From: Pseudomonadota bacterium
Lineage (GTDB): Bacteria; Pseudomonadota; Alphaproteobacteria; Caulobacterales; Hyphomonadaceae
Reading direction: 5' to 3'
DNA length: 64,000 nt
NCBI GenBank assembly: GCA_039029475.1
Contig: JBCCGB010000011.1
Coordinates: 64,264-128,263 of the forward strand
The position numbers were made by a program, and so were the translations under genes. Below are positions 33,069-39,791 of the stretch, piece after piece (the first letter of the stretch is position 1; each line of letters begins with the position of its first letter). Under the pieces are notes generated by a model, which ran no database searches, had not been told where the DNA came from, and saw only the letters and a program-made list of their open reading frames with translations.

Positions 33069-33664
33069 CAAGTGATCAGATCATTGAAAAAGGCGTTCAG
33101 GCGGCGCTAAAGCTGGCCGAGACTGAAAAATGGAGCGCCATAACTCTGGCTGAGATTGCTGAAGAAGCCGGCTTTAGTCTTGGCGACTTTCACACCCATG
33201 CCGACAAGGACACATTGTCAGCCGCCGTCGAGAAGACATTTGATGCCGGTATGAGTGAAGGCTCATTTGACGCCGAAGAAACCGCCCGCACACGTTTATT
33301 CGATGTCCTGATGATGCGGTTCGAAGCCATGGAGGCCGTGCGCGATGGTGCAATGTCTTTCTTGCGCTGGCGCGACCGTTCATTTGACGGTTTGGCTCTG
33401 CGGGTGCGAAACCGCACGGCGACCGCCAAATGGGCGTTGACCTGTTCGGGGCTTGATGGAGCCAGCGCGATTCCACGCGGGGTTCAGGTGACCGCATTGG
33501 CCTGGGCGATTGCGCAAGCCGAACGCGCCTGGCGCCAGGAAACCAGCGCCGATCTCAGTCGCACCATGGCGGCGCTTGATGCTGAGCTGATCAAACTGGA
33601 AGACCGGGCCGAGTGGCTGAAAGGGCGCGGCAAACGGCGCGCCGAGCCTGCCTCTGATCAATAA
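33065..33664 (+). CDS. Degenerate TetR-fold protein (possibly COQ9-like)
   Basis: AALKLAETEKWSAITLAEIAEEAGFS gives an HTH start, but the usual LY.hF.sK recognition segment is absent; RTRLFDVLMMRFEAM; DLSRTMAALD; ATGA-coupled to proC. Confidence 0.65.
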   Translation: MTSDQIIEKGVQAALKLAETEKWSAITLAEIAEEAGFSLGDFHTHADKDTLSAAVEKTFDAGMSEGSFDAEETARTRLFDVLMMRFEAMEAVRDGAMSFLRWRDRSFDGLALRVRNRTATAKWALTCSGLDGASAIPRGVQVTALAWAIAQAERAWRQETSADLSRTMAALDAELIKLEDRAEWLKGRGKRRAEPASDQ

Positions 33665-34956
33665 GGCAGACGCAAGCGCACGCGCAATCCGCCCAAGGGG
33701 CTATCTTCGAGACGAATATCACCGCCATGCGCCCGCGCGAAATCGCGCGCCAGGGTCAGACCGAGACCGGTGCCTGCGACATTCTGCGAGCGACCATCAT
33801 CGAGGCGGTGGAATGGCCGGAACGCATCTTCGCGCTTGTCCTCCGGAATGCCGGGACCATCATCATCGAACAGGATTTCGGCCATGCGTGGCCCTTTGAT
33901 CAAACTGACATCGCAGCGATTGCCATATCCAACCCCGTTTGAAATCAGATTGGTCAGTGTGCGCGTCAGCGCCATCGGGCGCACCATCAGAGAGATTTCC
34001 GAGGCGGCCTTGATGTGAGCGCCATCTATCCGCTCTGCGACGGTCCGGGTGATATGATCAAGACGGACATCTTCCGGTTTTTCACCTTCTTCGCCGCTGG
34101 CAAACGCAAGATATTCGTCGAGCATTTTCGACATATCATCGAGATCATTGCGTGCGCCGTCTATCTCTTCAGACGGTTCCATCATCGCGAGTTGCAGCTT
34201 CAACCGGGTGAGCGGCGTGCGCAGGTCATGGCTGACCCCCGCCAGCATCGCGGTGCGCTGTTCGGTAAAGGCCGTGAGACGCGCGCGCATGTCAGTCACG
34301 GCGCGGGCAGCGTCGCGAATCTCGGTGGCGCCGCTGGGTCGGAAGCCGGGCATGTCGCGGCCGCGACCAAACGCTTTGGCAGCTTCGGTCAGACGGAGGA
34401 TGGACCGGACCTGATTGCGCAAAAATGCAAAGGCCAATGCCAGCATCAGGATCGCGCCCAGCAACACCCAGACGATCGTGAAATGTGTATTTGCCGCGAG
34501 CGCGCGTTTCCGATCGATCAGAACCCGGACCGTACCGGTTTCGATCGGGCTTCGAAAATCCAACACCCGTCCGGATTCGACCGTGCGGACTTCAACCGGA
34601 TGTGACGTCACTGAAGCGAGTTGACCGCGCAGCACATTGCCATAGCTAAACCGCGTGCGCGCCTGCGTTGGCCAGGTCATGCCGTCCGGATGGGTGCAAT
34701 CGAGGCGCAGACCAAGCTGAGCCTCGATATCCGTTTCCATGGTCAGATCATGAGCCGGATCGGCGCAAATGTCGACGATCAGACCGACCTCGCGTGCGAT
34801 GGATTGCGACAGTTTTTCGTTCACGTCGCTAATGTGTTCCTGATAATAGTACAGCGAGAAGATCGCGAAAATCGCAATCACCGGCACTGCGACCAGCGCG
34901 GCCAGACGGGCATAGAGACCGCGGGGAGTGTAATCTCGCAGGCGAAAGCTGCTCAT
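33658..34956 (-). CDS. EnvZ-like sensor histidine kinase (HAMP-HisKA-HATPase)
   Basis: Two TMs; HAMP; H-box AGVSHDLRTPLTRL; NLISN; DDDGPGI; GTGLGL. Confidence 0.93.
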   Translation of the reverse strand: MSSFRLRDYTPRGLYARLAALVAVPVIAIFAIFSLYYYQEHISDVNEKLSQSIAREVGLIVDICADPAHDLTMETDIEAQLGLRLDCTHPDGMTWPTQARTRFSYGNVLRGQLASVTSHPVEVRTVESGRVLDFRSPIETGTVRVLIDRKRALAANTHFTIVWVLLGAILMLALAFAFLRNQVRSILRLTEAAKAFGRGRDMPGFRPSGATEIRDAARAVTDMRARLTAFTEQRTAMLAGVSHDLRTPLTRLKLQLAMMEPSEEIDGARNDLDDMSKMLDEYLAFASGEEGEKPEDVRLDHITRTVAERIDGAHIKAASEISLMVRPMALTRTLTNLISNGVGYGNRCDVSLIKGPRMAEILFDDDGPGIPEDKREDAFRPFHRLDDGRSQNVAGTGLGLTLARDFARAHGGDIRLEDSPLGGLRVRLRLPY

Positions 34957-34958
34957 AT

Positions 34959-35783
34959 TTATCGATCCAGAATCAGCATCATATTGGTGCGATCCTTATG
35001 CACGATTTTATAATCATGTTCGAGCAGGAGCGCTTCGCAATCGCGTTCCCACCGGCCGGCATGGCAGGCTTCCATGACAATGGCCTTGGGGAAGAGGGTT
35101 GGATTGGCGGCGGCGAAGAACGGAAACAGAATGCCATCTTCAAAACCTTCCACGTCAATTTTCAACACATCCAGATTCGCCACATCGCATTGATTCAGCA
35201 GGTCGATCATTGGGATCACCGGCACGTCAATTGTCGGAATGCCTTCGGCAAGACGCGCTGAAGCCTGTCCGGCGCTTGCCGGGGTTGAAAGGGTCAGCGA
35301 TCCTGGTTCATCGCCGCCAATCGCAGTTTGCAATAAATGTAACTTGAGCCGCGACGTGATGGCGGGGTTCAGGGCGAAATTCGTCTTCAGCCGCTCAAAC
35401 ATGGCAGGTTGTGGCTCAGCACTGATCAGAGTGCCGCTCTGCATGAGCGAGGCAATGTACAAACTGAACACGCCGGCATTGCCGCCAATGTCCAGGAACA
35501 CGCCCCCTTGGGATGGCATATGCTGTCGGCAAAAAGCGTATTCTTCGCGGGCATAGCGTTTTGGGCTCAGTAAGGCTTTGACTTCGGAGTTGTTTCCCGA
35601 GTGATGCAATCGCGCGTGCCCACCATAAAGCGAGACATCGAGCGGTCCGTCCGGGTTCAGCGCGCGAACACCCTTTGCCATCAGTTTACGCATCGCACCG
35701 CGCCCCATTGGTGTATGTCGCGATAATGCCACCAAAGCTTGCGACAATGGTCCCGGCCGGAAGGCCTGTGCAGAATGATCCAT
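34959..35783 (-). CDS. FkbM-family methyltransferase
   Basis: VFLDIGGNAGVFSL; SAEPQP; LKIDVEGFEDGIL. Confidence 0.88.
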   Translation of the reverse strand: MDHSAQAFRPGPLSQALVALSRHTPMGRGAMRKLMAKGVRALNPDGPLDVSLYGGHARLHHSGNNSEVKALLSPKRYAREEYAFCRQHMPSQGGVFLDIGGNAGVFSLYIASLMQSGTLISAEPQPAMFERLKTNFALNPAITSRLKLHLLQTAIGGDEPGSLTLSTPASAGQASARLAEGIPTIDVPVIPMIDLLNQCDVANLDVLKIDVEGFEDGILFPFFAAANPTLFPKAIVMEACHAGRWERDCEALLLEHDYKIVHKDRTNMMLILDR

Positions 35784-35851
35784 TTCGTCCTCGGGTCTTT
35801 GACGCGGACCTTCTTCATACGCGCTCCGAAAAAAATTTGGTAGATCAGGTC

Positions 35852-36766
35852 TCAGTCCAGATCATTTGTCAGTATTGTCGTGGCATCTTCCTTCAGGATA
35901 TGCGCCATTTCGTGAAAGCTTTTGGCCATCGGCGAGGTCGGTCGCCAGACCAGTGCGACCCGCCGCATGGCGCGCGGATGATCCAGCGAGCGCAGGACAA
36001 GATCTGCATCGCGGCTGGCTTCTGACAAAGCGTAGATGGCGGGCAGGATCGCGACGCCAGCGCCAGTCGCCGCCATGTGTCGTATGGCATCAAGGCTCGT
36101 GCCTGTGAACACGCCGCTCATATTGGCGTGTGCAGCATCTGCAAGTTCGCGGACAATGCGGCTGAGGCGGTGATTCTGCCCGACGCTTAACAGGTCCCGG
36201 CCCTTGAGATCCTTCAATCGCACTGGGCCAGTGCCGGCCAGCGGATCATCCGGAGCCGCACAAATCCATAAATGCTCTTCGAACAATAAGGTGTTCGACA
36301 TATTGGGATGGTCTTCCGGGGTCGAGATAACGCAGTCCAGCGCACCATCAATCAGACGCGCCTGCAATTGCTCGGTCCAGTGCTCTTCGACCACAAGTCG
36401 CAATTGCGGATAGGTCCGGTGCAGATCCTTGACCACGGGCGGCAAGAGATAGGGTCCGACAGATGGCAGCACGCCCAGCCGGATACGGCCTGACAAGGCG
36501 CCATCCTGGATTCGCATCGCGGCCTTCAGGTCTTCGACATCGCGCAGGATCAGGCGCGCTCGCCGGACGAACTCTTCGCCCTGTGCGGTCATCAAGGCGC
36601 CGCTCCGCCCGCGCTCGATCAATTGCAGACCGAGCTGATCTTCGACGGATGAGATTTGCGCCGAGAGGCTCGGTTGACTGACATGCAATCGCTTCGCGGC
36701 CTCGTGAAAGCGACCGGTTTCGGCGACCGCGACAATGTATTGAAGTTGCCGAAGTGTCGGGCGCAT
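35852..36766 (-). CDS. LysR-family regulator, OxyR-like but lacking the redox cysteines
   Basis: LRQLQYIVAVAETGRFHEAAKRLHVSQPSLSAQI HTH; GVLPSVGPYLLP and GTSLDAIRHMAATGAGVAILP are OxyR-like; HRL replaces HCL. Confidence 0.85.
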   Translation of the reverse strand: MRPTLRQLQYIVAVAETGRFHEAAKRLHVSQPSLSAQISSVEDQLGLQLIERGRSGALMTAQGEEFVRRARLILRDVEDLKAAMRIQDGALSGRIRLGVLPSVGPYLLPPVVKDLHRTYPQLRLVVEEHWTEQLQARLIDGALDCVISTPEDHPNMSNTLLFEEHLWICAAPDDPLAGTGPVRLKDLKGRDLLSVGQNHRLSRIVRELADAAHANMSGVFTGTSLDAIRHMAATGAGVAILPAIYALSEASRDADLVLRSLDHPRAMRRVALVWRPTSPMAKSFHEMAHILKEDATTILTNDLD

Positions 36767-36771
36767 ACGTG

Positions 36772-36808
36772 GTAGCCTGTATCTATCAAAATCTTAGTTT
36801 CTTTAGAT
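36772..36808. promoter_or_regulatory. OxyR-type four-tetramer binding site
   Basis: GTAG-N7-CTAT-N7-TTAG-N7-AGAT versus the OxyR consensus ATAG-N7-CTAT-N7-ATAG-N7-CTAT (12/16); begins 6 bp upstream of the LysR ATG and abuts a TTGAAT hexamer (36809-36814) on the + strand. Confidence 0.65.
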
Positions 36809-36870
36809 TTGAATTATCTCCGACGTCAACCAGATTCTGGTTAGATTGAAACCATAGGAGTCCCAAAACA

Positions 36871-37050
36871 ATGGACCGTATCACAGCAAACCCCTCCCAG
36901 ATTTACCCGCAAGTTTCGGCCGCGTTTCTGCACGCTGGTGGTGACGTCAATGCGCTTGATGTTGATGAATTCGTGACGCCGGAGCTGACGCCGAAAAAAG
37001 AGTCACGCCGCGGCTGGCGCCGTCGCCGAATTCGTCGCGGCAAGAGCTAG
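36871..37050 (+). CDS. Unannotated 59-aa small protein with an Arg-rich C-terminus
   Basis: Manual translation MDRITANPSQIYPQVSAAFLHAGGDVNALDVDEFVTPELTPKKESRRGWRRRRIRRGKS*; AGGAG SD at 36856-36860; fills the otherwise empty gap between the LysR and the GST; absent from the ORF track, which lists nothing under 60 aa. Confidence 0.7.
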   Translation: MDRITANPSQIYPQVSAAFLHAGGDVNALDVDEFVTPELTPKKESRRGWRRRRIRRGKS

Positions 37051-37076
37051 AGGACGCGTACGTACGAGTTGACGAC

Positions 37077-37691
37077 TTAACCGCCGGTCTTTTCGAAGGC
37101 TCGTTGAAAGGCCGGCCGGGTCACGTTGCGGGCCAGATAGGCAGCAAGGTTCGGGTAGGGGTCGAGCTCACCCAGCCGTTCGGCCATTTGGGCAATATAC
37201 GTCATGCCAATATCCGGAGCCTGGAAGGTGTTGCCCATGACATAGTCGCGATCTGCCAGGCGCGCCTCGACATAGCCAAGCTGCAATGCGACTTCGCCGG
37301 TGGCGAACATGTCGAGTAATGGCGGTTTGTCCTCGAGACGGCTGAGCAGCAATTTCATCAGCATCGGCGCGAAGGCCGAAGCCTCTGTATACATCAGCCA
37401 TTGCATCCATTCGGCTTTGGCTTTGGGGTCGTCAGATTGCGGCCCGAGCTTGTTCTCAGTGTCGAATTTTTCCAGCAGGTAGAGCGCGATGGCACCAGAT
37501 TCAGCGAGCGTGAACCCATCATCTTCGATCACCGGCGACTTGCCGAGCGGATGGGCATTTCTAAGCTCTGGCGGGGCGCGCCCCATTTCGTTGCGATCAT
37601 AGAATTCGAACTCATATGTCGCGCCGAGTTCTTCCAGCAACCAGACAGTGAAAATCGAACGCCCGACGCGTAGGTGATGGATTTTTAGCAT
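37077..37691 (-). CDS. Glutathione S-transferase
   Basis: RSIFTVWLLEELG; HPLGKSPVIED; LAESGAIALYL; C-terminal YPNLAAYLAR...RPAFQRA. Confidence 0.92.
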   Translation of the reverse strand: MLKIHHLRVGRSIFTVWLLEELGATYEFEFYDRNEMGRAPPELRNAHPLGKSPVIEDDGFTLAESGAIALYLLEKFDTENKLGPQSDDPKAKAEWMQWLMYTEASAFAPMLMKLLLSRLEDKPPLLDMFATGEVALQLGYVEARLADRDYVMGNTFQAPDIGMTYIAQMAERLGELDPYPNLAAYLARNVTRPAFQRAFEKTGG

Positions 37692-37705
37692 TTTGAAGTC
37701 CCTTT

Positions 37706-38383
37706 TCAGTCTGGCATCAGACGATATCCGATACCGCGAACGGTCTGGATGTGAATAGGGTTCCTCGGGTCAGGTTCGATTTTCTTGCGCAGCCGAGTGA
37801 CCTGAACGTCAATGCTGCGTTCGGTGCCATTCGATGTCTTGTCGGCAAGCGCTTCGCGCGAAATCGGCTCGCCCGGGTGTCGCGATAAAAATGTCAGAAG
37901 TTGCAACTCGCTATCGGTCAGGCGGATATTGCCGCTCGGTCCGCTCAACAGCCCCTTGGTCGGTTCGAAGACCAGGCCGGACATTTCAATTTCATCCGGT
38001 GGGGTCGGCACATGGGTGCGGCGAATGATGGCGGCCGTTCGCAGCGCCAACTCTTCAGGTTCGAACGGCTTGGGCAGATAATCATCGGCGCCGAGGCGCA
38101 AGCCCTCGATGCGATCCTCGGATTGGCCCCGCGCGGTGAGCAGCAGAACCGGCGTGTCATTGCCATCATCGCGGAGCGCCTTGAGCAGGCTCAAGCCATC
38201 TTCGCCCGGCATCATGATGTCGAAGATTGCCAGATCAAAGCTGAACGTCTGGAACAGCTTGCGCGCGGCTGCGGCCCCGGAAACGGCGGTGACGGAATGA
38301 CCCTCACGCGTCAGATATTGTTTTAACAGGTCACGGATGCGGTCATCATCATCAACGATCAGAAGATGTGTTTCTTCGCTCAC
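37706..38383 (-). CDS. OmpR-family response regulator (PetR-like)
   Basis: LLIVDDDD; FDIMMPGEDG (phosphoacceptor Asp); LLLTARG; DYLPKPF; RSIDVQVTRLRKKIE; TVRGIGY. Confidence 0.93.
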   Translation of the reverse strand: MSEETHLLIVDDDDRIRDLLKQYLTREGHSVTAVSGAAAARKLFQTFSFDLAIFDIMMPGEDGLSLLKALRDDGNDTPVLLLTARGQSEDRIEGLRLGADDYLPKPFEPEELALRTAAIIRRTHVPTPPDEIEMSGLVFEPTKGLLSGPSGNIRLTDSELQLLTFLSRHPGEPISREALADKTSNGTERSIDVQVTRLRKKIEPDPRNPIHIQTVRGIGYRLMPD

Positions 38384-38853
38384 AGCAAAGCCTCCAATAC
38401 ACTCCGTACGCCGCCCACGGCGCCGGCACCAGCGCTGCGATAAGCCCGTCGCAACTTGTCGCGCATCGCAAGGGTGGCCGGATCGGTCAGCCGCTTGCCT
38501 TCATGAGTCAGGTATAATTGCCTGACGCGCCGATCGCCGCTTTTGCTTTGCCGCCGCTCGATCAGGTCGCGTTTTTCCAAATCGGCAATGATCCGCGCAA
38601 ATGTCGGCGTGGTCGAATCCAATTGTTGGCAGAGATGATTGATCGCGTGGCCAGGCTGGAACCGGACAGTCAGCAGCGTATGGGCCGCCAGGATCGGCAT
38701 TTCGAATTCGCTGGCAATTTCCCGCGTGGCTTTCATCAGGGCGCGTTCGCTGGCCAGAAGCAATGCAATTCCATAATCCAGTTCCTCATCTCTGAGGAAT
38801 AATCTTGGATCGAATCCAGGCGCGTTTGCGCGTATTTGGTTGACATTCACCAT
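38380..38853 (-). CDS. MarR-family regulator (PetP-like)
   Basis: FARIIADLEKRDLIERRQSKSGDRRVRQLYLTHEG winged helix; GTGA overlap with the response regulator; ATG at 38853 preferred over 38892. Confidence 0.88.
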   Translation of the reverse strand: MVNVNQIRANAPGFDPRLFLRDEELDYGIALLLASERALMKATREIASEFEMPILAAHTLLTVRFQPGHAINHLCQQLDSTTPTFARIIADLEKRDLIERRQSKSGDRRVRQLYLTHEGKRLTDPATLAMRDKLRRAYRSAGAGAVGGVRSVLEALL

Positions 38854-38906
38854 GGTGATCTGAGAATGCCCGTGAAACGTGTAAAAGTGCAAGACAGGAA
38901 AAGAGA

Positions 38907-39791
38907 ATGGCAGACCAGGCCTATGATGATCGTGACGGCTATATCTGGATGGACGGTCAGTTCGTCCCGTGGCGTGACACGAAAGTTCATGTGCTGACGC
39001 ATGCCATGCATTATGCGTCCTGTGTGTTTGAAGGCGAGCGCGCTTACGGCGGTGTCATCTATGCCTCGCGCCGACATTCAGAACGCCTGGCCAATTCAGC
39101 CAAGATTATGGGATTTGACCTGCCGGTTTCCGTCGATGAGCTCGAGCAGATCAAGGCAGAAACGCTGGCCAAATCGGGGCTTGAGAATGCTTATGTCCGC
39201 GCTTTTGCCTGGCGCGGCAGTGAAATGATGGGCGTTTCTGCGCAAAACAACACGATTCATCTGGCCGTCGCCGTCTGGGCCTGGGGCGACTATTTCGCCG
39301 ACAAGATGAAAGGCATCCGGATGACGCATGCGATGTATCGCCGTCCGGATCCTTTGACAGCGCCTTGCCATGCCAAGGCGGCTGGGCTGTACATGATTTG
39401 TACCTTGTCCAAGCACGCTGCGGAAAATGACGGTTATGCAGATGCCTTGATGTTGGATTATCGCGGTCAGGTCGCAGAAGCGACCGGTGCGAACATATTT
39501 TTCATGCGCGATGGCGCGCTCCATACGCCGACACCGGATTGTTTTCTCAACGGAATTACGCGGCAAACCGCGATCAAGCTGGCCAAAGCGCGCCAGATCG
39601 AGGTGATCGAGCGCGTGATCATGCCGGACGAGCTGAGTACCTTTGATGAGTGTTTCATCACGGGCTCAGCGGCCGAAATCACGCCCGTCGCAGAGATTGG
39701 CGAACACACCTATAAGCCTGGATATACGTCGGAAGCGCTGGTCAATGATTATGCGGATCTGGTCTATCGACGCATCGCCATGTCGGCCTGA
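38907..39791 (+). CDS. ilvE: Branched-chain amino acid aminotransferase
   Basis: LTHAMHYASCVFEGERAY; AKAAGLY (PLP Lys); EATGANIFF; LNGITR; TGSAAEITPV. Confidence 0.95.
   Translation: MADQAYDDRDGYIWMDGQFVPWRDTKVHVLTHAMHYASCVFEGERAYGGVIYASRRHSERLANSAKIMGFDLPVSVDELEQIKAETLAKSGLENAYVRAFAWRGSEMMGVSAQNNTIHLAVAVWAWGDYFADKMKGIRMTHAMYRRPDPLTAPCHAKAAGLYMICTLSKHAAENDGYADALMLDYRGQVAEATGANIFFMRDGALHTPTPDCFLNGITRQTAIKLAKARQIEVIERVIMPDELSTFDECFITGSAAEITPVAEIGEHTYKPGYTSEALVNDYADLVYRRIAMSA

Follow-up and report, generated by a model that had tools for sequence, protein, structure and literature searches.

A 59-amino-acid open reading frame (ORF) with an arginine-rich tail, located in a 64,000-nucleotide stretch of DNA from a member of the Hyphomonadaceae (contig JBCCGB010000011.1, positions 64,264 to 128,263; hereafter the window), is, judged by its conservation among relatives, a genuine and previously uncharacterised protein gene under purifying selection. 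It lies divergent from the gene of a LysR-type regulator that resembles OxyR, and the two genes are inherited together. We see roughly even odds (about 0.5) that the small protein is the output of this regulator, switched by it and acting in trans through a basic helix on a polyanionic partner.

Coding status of the small ORF

The gene and its parts are positioned in the window as follows:

36856..36860, plus strand: Shine-Dalgarno sequence AGGAG, 10 nucleotides 5' of the ATG
36871..37050, plus strand: small-protein gene, 59 amino acids and a TAG stop, MDRITANPSQIYPQVSAAFLHAGGDVNALDVDEFVTPELTPKKESRRGWRRRRIRRGKS; ATG start, ORF and translation read from the window
36964..37047, plus strand: conserved C-terminal half, residues 32-59 (D.FVT.E.TPK.ESRRGWRRRRIRRGKS), from dN/dS and codon usage
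37006..37038, plus strand: Trp-containing Arg-rich helix R46-R56 (RRGWRRRRIRR), core motif of the small-ORF family, from AlphaFold2 and hhalign

An earlier reading of the window made from its letters alone (the sequence-only reading) had reported this ORF; the translation that it quoted is identical, letter for letter, to the one given here, the AGGAG that it named is present, and its count of 11 Lys or Arg residues among the final 18 agrees with ours. Nine of the 59 residues are Arg (15%), and the net charge calculated from the sequence goes from about -4 over residues 1-44 to about +9 over residues 45-59. The protein has no match in Pfam, NCBIfam, PHROGs or, by profile search, the PDB, and a Pfam search at E<=10 of the small ORF together with four divergent relatives also returned nothing. 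Homologues in NCBI records of metagenome-assembled genomes are labelled 'hypothetical protein'. No further copies of the small ORF were found in its own genome, and an Rfam scan of positions 35000-39000 gave no relevant element.

Is such a short frame a gene? The sequence-only reading had proposed looking for homologues and for a dN/dS below 1, and both were found. A six-frame search of 60 relatives, 37 of them of the same genus, recovered the small ORF, open and stop-free, in 21 of the 37 congeneric genomes; the same search gave nothing credible in other families. For close comparison 20 loci were fetched (the core loci), with flanks of 1.5 kilobases only, as for all loci in this work. The start codon is ATG in 19 of these and GTG in one, a Shine-Dalgarno sequence (aGGAg/AAGGA) stands 6-10 nucleotides ahead of it in every case, and the product is always 54-60 amino acids long (59 or 60 in 18 of the loci). 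The N-terminal half of the protein is highly variable except for M-[FVLY]-R and an invariant Asn27, whereas D.FVTAEPTPK.ESRRGWRRRRIRRGKS, which makes up the C-terminal half, hardly varies. Where Arg, Ser, Thr, Pro or Gly is invariant, the species draw on three or four synonymous codons, and the stop codon varies among TAG, TAA and TGA. By the Nei-Gojobori method (NG86), dN/dS is 0.08 over alignment residues 33-60, 0.60 over residues 2-32 and 0.26 overall, with dS ~1.5; dS is thus near saturation and the ratios are approximate, but that the halves differ is robust. Variable synonymous codons combined with a low C-terminal dN/dS indicate that selection acts on the protein and not on DNA or RNA. 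By the same comparison, the functional part of the small protein is its C-terminal 28 residues, and the N-terminal half is nearly free to change.

Conservation of the 3' half at the level of DNA or RNA, as a terminator of the neighbouring GST gene or a small RNA, was considered and ruled out, third codon positions being saturated. On the minus strand at 37005-37020, inside the tail-coding region and at the place expected for a GST terminator, there is a terminator-like hairpin with a T-run. Hairpins of this kind are no commoner than chance predicts (0.7 expected), and relatives do not preserve the T-run, which reflects the Lys-Lys codons AAAAAA.

The sequence-only reading had also allowed that the ORF might be what is left of a longer gene. 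A profile search of 1.84 billion representative proteins returned only ten clusters, all of 55-76 amino acids, and no longer protein containing the small-ORF sequence; since only short proteins came back, a gene remnant is ruled out. That the ORF is without function altogether, either as a chance frame or as such a remnant, might be argued from its shortness and from the near absence of constraint on its N-terminal half, but frame, length, start and Shine-Dalgarno sequence are kept in more than 20 species at the divergence given above, and with the lack of a longer parent this leaves the idea a virtually negligible probability.

Pairing with a LysR clade

The gene on the other side of the intergenic region is the following:

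35852..36766, minus strand: divergent LysR-type regulator, 304 amino acids, OxyR-like, Arg at the C199 position and Ala at C208 (Pfam, NCBIfam, PDB, tree)

One order, (FkbM)-LysR(-)/small ORF(+)/GST(-)-response regulator(-), is common to all 20 core loci, which belong to Hyphomonas/Henriciella-like marine bacteria. The small ORF is therefore divergent from the same LysR clade at 20 of 20 core loci, which bears out the conservation next to this clade that the sequence-only reading had suggested looking for. Sixteen congeners are without a core-type ORF. Nine of these have no member of the LysR clade and carry only a 35%-identical paralogue with the OxyR motif GHCLRDHALSVC; the remaining seven have an orthologue of the regulator at 52-62% identity, and in at least four of the seven a divergent small ORF, preceded by a Shine-Dalgarno sequence, has a related motif (VRRAWRRRRTRR, LRRQWRNRRLKR or LRRLWRERRVRR, or the N-terminal TLRRWRRIRTEKARL).

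An order-wide search placed the LysR clade in five genera of two families. Its non-core orthologues (51-62% identity; genera g1, g14 and g9), which stand in other gene contexts, are likewise accompanied by ORFs of 45-76 amino acids with a Shine-Dalgarno sequence and either RR.WR.RR.RR or an Arg run. Among 26 non-core loci, 14 have a 45-76-amino-acid ORF with the Arg run near the C-terminus, three have an ORF that is Arg-rich at the N-terminus and nine have none; several of the non-core small ORFs begin with MFR or MYR, as in the core family. Alignment of the core family with the W-containing non-core ORFs by hhalign gave 92% probability and E 5e-7, pairing ESRRGWRRRRIRR with FLRRQWR.RR.RR. An Arg helix is of low complexity, and this E-value overstates the weight of the match; it is used here only alongside the conserved position next to orthologous regulators.

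Loss of the pair is also informative. In one congener (G005, locus L109) the MarR, response-regulator, GST and kinase genes are contiguous, and both the LysR gene and the small ORF are missing. This genome nests within the core clade on the GST tree (95 in the Shimodaira-Hasegawa-like approximate likelihood-ratio test), and such nesting means that the LysR gene and the small ORF were lost jointly; the basis is one tree, and all trees in this work are quick single-gene trees. Among the relatives compared, the small ORF was never lost alone.

A cysteine-less OxyR paralogue

By Pfam the regulator matches HTH_1 (71 bits) and LysR_substrate (152 bits). Its NCBIfam match to OxyR (NF008361) scores 208.5 bits, under the equivalog cut-off of 329, followed by CynR at 138 bits (cut-off 277), and its top PDB matches are all OxyR (4x6g, 6g4r, 7l4s and 1i69). 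The two residues that align to OxyR Cys199 and Cys208 are Arg200 and Ala209. Throughout the 45 members of the clade the Cys199 position is occupied by Arg (36) or Lys (7) and the Cys208 position by Ala (45 of 45); of the other cysteines, Cys145 is present in the core clade only and Cys169 in 41 of 45, and the C-terminal third has none. A long, fully supported branch splits the clade from canonical OxyR. Another contig of this genome (C3:242085-242957) carries the gene of a canonical OxyR, which has both redox cysteines (GHCLRDHALSVC) and is 36% identical to the regulator in the window. Replacement of both cysteines across the clade and the presence of a canonical OxyR elsewhere imply that the regulator is not an OxyR in mechanism. 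As far as alignment can tell, it is a second, cysteine-less OxyR paralogue for which the classical disulfide peroxide switch is impossible. The description of the regulator as OxyR-like in the sequence-only reading thus holds for family, by fold, PDB and NCBIfam, and fails for its redox residues: it is not a peroxide sensor of that kind.

The regulator gene and the small ORF are 104 base pairs (bp) apart, and this intergenic region contains the following conserved elements, none of them assigned to a strand:

36772..36818: conserved OxyR-type operator, GTAG-N7-CTATC (36772-36787) and then AGTTTCTTTAGATTTGAATTATC (36796-36818), from 20 core intergenic regions
36825-36838: conserved GTCAACCAaTTTCT block, from 20 core intergenic regions

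In the consensus of the 20 core intergenic regions the order is gGTAG-N7-CTATCaa, AGTTTCTTTAGATTTGAATTATC, GTCAACCAaTTTCT, so that, as had been proposed, a conserved OxyR-type box does separate the small ORF from the divergent gene of a LysR regulator of the OxyR family. The reverse complement of the GTCAACCAaTTTCT block includes TTGAC, which may be the -35 element of lysR on the minus strand. A perfect 15-bp palindrome, AACCAGATTCTGGTT, at 36828-36842 is found in this genome only: relatives conserve its left part (GTCAACCAaTTTCT) but not its right arm. At about half of the non-core loci, including those linked to carbonic anhydrase, NhaA and SbtA-like genes, an arrangement (G)ATAG-N7-CTAT(C)-N12-14-TTTC.ATT[TG]GA[AG][CT]TAT(C) can be read by eye; a strict regular expression caught only part of these operators.

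Scanning the genome with the 23-bp operator block gave one exact site, in this intergenic region. The only further match within four mismatches, C6:207937 with four, lies inside a coding region and was rejected as another operator copy. Within the limits set by a degenerate motif, a single good site is consistent with the small ORF as the one direct divergent target in this genome.

What might the regulator sense? Sister regulators are divergent from a beta-carbonic anhydrase gene at five loci and at two more with the small ORF in between, from NhaA at two, from a luciferase-like oxidoreductase at two and, again behind a small ORF, from a permease of the Sbt_1 bicarbonate-transporter family at one; the carbonic anhydrase-, NhaA- and Sbt_1-linked loci are L021, L025, L026, L062, L068, L069, L071, L074, L077 and L078. 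Because sister regulators adjoin carbonic anhydrase, NhaA and SbtA-like genes, these neighbourhoods suggest an inorganic-carbon, pH or Na+ cue as a candidate signal.

The downstream DUF465 gene

Beyond the stop codon of the small ORF the window contains:

37051..37076, no strand: 26-bp spacer to the convergent GST stop, the slot of a 70-amino-acid DUF465 gene in relatives, deleted here (locus comparison)
37077..37691, minus strand: GST gene, convergent

The sequence-only reading had the GST gene converging 27 bp after the stop; the convergence is right and the gap is 26 bp. At 10 of the 20 core loci (for example L010:1685-1894 and L002:1689-1898, both on the plus strand, and eight more) a 70-amino-acid gene (MPELDRWENEGG...ELQRLKREKLYLKDQ) with the N-terminal motif DRWENEGG starts 8-10 nucleotides past the small-ORF stop, often with its Shine-Dalgarno sequence overlapping that stop, and ends at the GST stop. 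It belongs to DUF465/YdcH (PF04325), three relatives scoring 36-48 bits against a cut-off of 25. The gene is scattered on the LysR tree, which implies at least 4-5 losses, the one in this genome included, and locus L004 retains a decayed 107-nucleotide remnant in which the ATG has changed to AAG. No copy was found elsewhere in the genome under study beyond a distant DUF465 paralogue, nor was a partner of the RWE.EGG type. In other genera (L065, L066, L067 and L070) the small ORF is followed by unrelated-looking proteins of 69-158 amino acids that have no Pfam match and have only RWE[NDS][ED]GG in common with the N-terminus encoded by the DUF465 gene; the shared stretch could be a short motif or family, so far unrecognised, that accompanies the Arg-rich ORF.

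Taken across the core loci, this arrangement indicates that the small ORF was ancestrally co-transcribed with the DUF465 gene, which in half of the close relatives is translationally coupled to it. In 10 of the 20 core genomes, the present one among them, no gene follows the small ORF on the same strand. The sequence-only reading had called the small ORF the sole target of its regulator: nothing else lies downstream here and there is one good operator site, but this is a derived state, reached by loss of a gene that half of the core relatives keep.

Predicted structure

AlphaFold2, run on the 20-sequence alignment, gave a mean predicted local distance difference test score (pLDDT) of 65.6, with residues 1-40 at about 50-63 (disordered) and residues 41-59 at about 89-93, including a helix over residues 46-55. 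The small protein is accordingly predicted to be a largely disordered chain that ends in a confident basic helix.

The surrounding two-component genes

The LysR/small-ORF(/FkbM) cassette lies between the GST and EnvZ-like kinase genes of a group of MarR, OmpR-like response regulator, GST and kinase genes (33658-38892). The kinase gene (33658..34956) follows the FkbM gene, its start (34956) abutting the FkbM stop (34959), and the MarR and response-regulator genes overlap by four nucleotides (38380-38383).

Proposed mechanism and alternatives

In the mechanism that we favor, the cysteine-less OxyR paralogue would bind the conserved operator in the intergenic region and control the divergent promoter. 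Having lost both redox cysteines, it must respond to a cue other than peroxide acting via the Cys199-Cys208 switch. The product would be a disordered micro-protein in which an acidic/prolyl segment (D.FVT.EPTPK.E) precedes the Trp-containing Arg-rich helix (SRRGWRRRRIRRGKS), and this helix would bind a polyanionic partner in trans, most likely RNA or else an acidic protein surface such as that of a sensor kinase or of the regulator itself. A narrower and speculative version, which we hold to be improbable as a whole, would make the protein a chromosomal RNA-binding peptide of the arginine-rich-motif (ARM) kind, serving as the post-transcriptional output of a paralogue in which the Arg or Lys at the Cys199 position detects bicarbonate, CO2, pH or Na+. 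Several points weigh against the favored mechanism. The promoter and its dependence on LysR are deduced from position only, and a sigma-70 promoter scan of the region detected no site. The motif likenesses among Arg helices count for less than their E-values imply. The inorganic-carbon/pH link is drawn from sister regulators and not from this locus. Finally, the small ORF heads an operon in many lineages, with DUF465, carbonic anhydrase or SbtA-like genes behind it, which fits a cis-acting leader too.

In such a leader, translation of the small ORF would set expression of the downstream gene, by coupling or by ribosome pausing on the Arg run, and the peptide would have no role in trans. The close spacing of the DUF465 gene, with its Shine-Dalgarno sequence over the small-ORF stop, is what coupling would look like, and the small ORF likewise precedes the SbtA-like permease (L021), carbonic anhydrase (L068 and L078) and RWE.EGG proteins (L065-L067 and L070). 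Against this, the C-terminal 28 residues, including F34, T40, P41 and S45, are conserved to the degree described above although half of the core genomes have nothing downstream, and such strong conservation of amino acids in ten genomes without a downstream gene weakens the leader role; moreover, the DUF465 gene was lost repeatedly and the small ORF never alone, and no terminator or antiterminator follows the small ORF. We regard a leader as unlikely. The peptide could instead bind its own LysR protein or the operator DNA, as a co-activator or anti-activator in a closed two-gene circuit, an idea that draws on the strict co-inheritance and joint loss of the genes and on the absence of a second operator copy in the genome, which may leave the circuit without any further direct output. 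Related regulators next to carbonic anhydrase or NhaA genes, however, operate without an intact small ORF (L025, L026, L062, L069, L071, L074 and L077), from which it follows that the regulator does not need the peptide, and we consider this feedback role decidedly unlikely.

Equally doubtful in our estimation is modulation of the flanking EnvZ/OmpR-like system, in which the basic tail would bind the kinase encoded 2 kilobases away. In the core clade the cassette is lodged between the response regulator-GST genes and the kinase gene of one system, and DUF1127 proteins, by analogy, control the kinase PhoR by direct contact (PMC12501420); yet the small protein has no sequence relation to DUF1127, and non-core pairs lie elsewhere, with no GST, response-regulator or FkbM match in the flanks fetched, so that the location may be an accident of insertion. 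A cationic membrane-active or antimicrobial peptide, with a W/R-rich tail directed at anionic membranes and masked by the acidic N-terminal part, would explain the charge split between the two parts of the protein and the Trp and Arg-rich tail. We think this very unlikely: neither a signal peptide nor a transporter, protease or immunity gene is present in the cassette, the supposed pro-region shows hardly any conservation, and the helix is uniformly basic and not amphipathic.

Outlook

Functional small proteins are mostly missed or left as 'hypothetical', and the gene described here comes with an unusually clean evolutionary proof of function. It also offers an attractive experimental handle, with one regulator, one operator and one 59-amino-acid product, as well as natural variants with or without the DUF465 companion. 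The clade of cysteine-less OxyR paralogues is likewise uncharacterised; a testable idea of its signal comes from the genes that recur beside it (carbonic anhydrase, NhaA and SbtA-like). If the ARM version of the mechanism were true, the pair would represent a new two-gene module in which a transcription factor acts through an RNA-binding micro-protein to keep inorganic carbon and pH in balance in marine Hyphomonadaceae, and one that evolved independently of the pairing of LsrB/VtlR with DUF1127 proteins.

Comparison with known systems

The regulator shares with OxyR its family and fold, the divergent autoregulatory geometry and an operator of the ATAG-N7-CTAT type. It differs in the replacement of Cys199 by Arg or Lys and of Cys208 by Ala, in a family score of 208 bits, under the cut-off of 329, and in coexisting with a true OxyR elsewhere in the genome; OxyR targets catalase, ahpC and dps, whereas here the divergent gene encodes a small protein. 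A resemblance to LysR regulators of the CynR/CmpR/NhaR type, which control carbonic anhydrase, bicarbonate uptake and Na+/H+ antiport, comes through the beta-carbonic anhydrase, NhaA and Sbt_1 permease genes from which sister clade members diverge. The cassette of this genome has no such target gene, and the likeness runs through the neighbourhoods of paralogues and orthologues only. An amino-acid attenuation leader is a poor match as well, given that there is no downstream gene and no plus-strand terminator here and that residues other than Arg are conserved too.

ARM RNA-binding peptides are of the phage lambda N type or of the lentiviral Rev/Tat type. As modelled, the small protein has in common with them a short, uniformly basic helix of ~11-15 residues, one of them aromatic, within a small protein that is disordered elsewhere. 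This likeness is compositional and structural, no homology being claimed, and the motif in the present case is C-terminal, chromosomal and located beside a transcription factor.

The nearest parallel is found in the short DUF1127 proteins (Agrobacterium SDP1-3, the Brucella BAB1_0914 group, Rhodobacter CcaF1 and E. coli YjiS), which are ~47-70 amino acids long, Arg-rich and alphaproteobacterial. Small size, Arg-richness and an alphaproteobacterial host are insufficient for membership; a further shared trait is a predicted helix in which an Arg run comes after a Trp. Homology to DUF1127 (PF06568), suggested by the W and the Arg run, was ruled out by hidden Markov model (HMM) and hhalign. The DUF1127 HMM (cut-off 23.3 bits) had no match in the whole genome at E<=10, and the same HMM matches 30 of 81 other alphaproteobacterial genomes, often in several copies; hhalign against a bona fide DUF1127 alignment gave 0.6% probability over seven columns (RGWRRRR against ..W..Rr). 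The second half of DUF1127, L..L.DR.L.DIG..R.D, is absent from the small protein, which ends six residues past the Arg run. DUF1127 is also absent from the single genome of the same order that was sampled. Speculatively, the Arg-rich ORF might fill a niche similar to that of DUF1127 proteins. CcaF1 binds RNA, and short DUF1127 proteins of Agrobacterium bind the kinase PhoR, which is regulated by this direct contact (PMC12501420); by analogy, a similar action, on RNA or on a sensor kinase, would be expected of the small protein.

The parallel extends to regulation, in that published papers link the LysR-type regulators LsrB/VtlR, in Rhizobiales, to DUF1127 proteins, so that both kinds of small protein appear tied to an OxyR-related LysR regulator. 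The regulators differ in their gene neighbours: LsrB is in an operon with trxB (PMC11975290), whereas the LysR gene of the window has no trxB neighbour and adjoins an FkbM methyltransferase gene downstream and the small ORF upstream. LsrB has a conserved cysteine pair, C144/C273, in A. tumefaciens (PMC11975290); the regulator of the window has Cys145 and Cys169 and no cysteine in the C-terminal third, and appears to lack that pair. It scores 151 bits to OxyR versus 66 bits to 9hh1, a LysR entry that could be LsrB or another regulator. The sequence-only reading had proposed an undescribed stress module, and this is borne out for the protein family, which is new to Pfam, NCBIfam, PHROGs and PDB; the concept has a published precedent in the LsrB/VtlR-DUF1127 pairing. 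The pair described here would be the second, independent case of an OxyR-related LysR regulator with an Arg-rich micro-protein as its output, and a second independent case would suggest that this design is a recurrent solution in Alphaproteobacteria.

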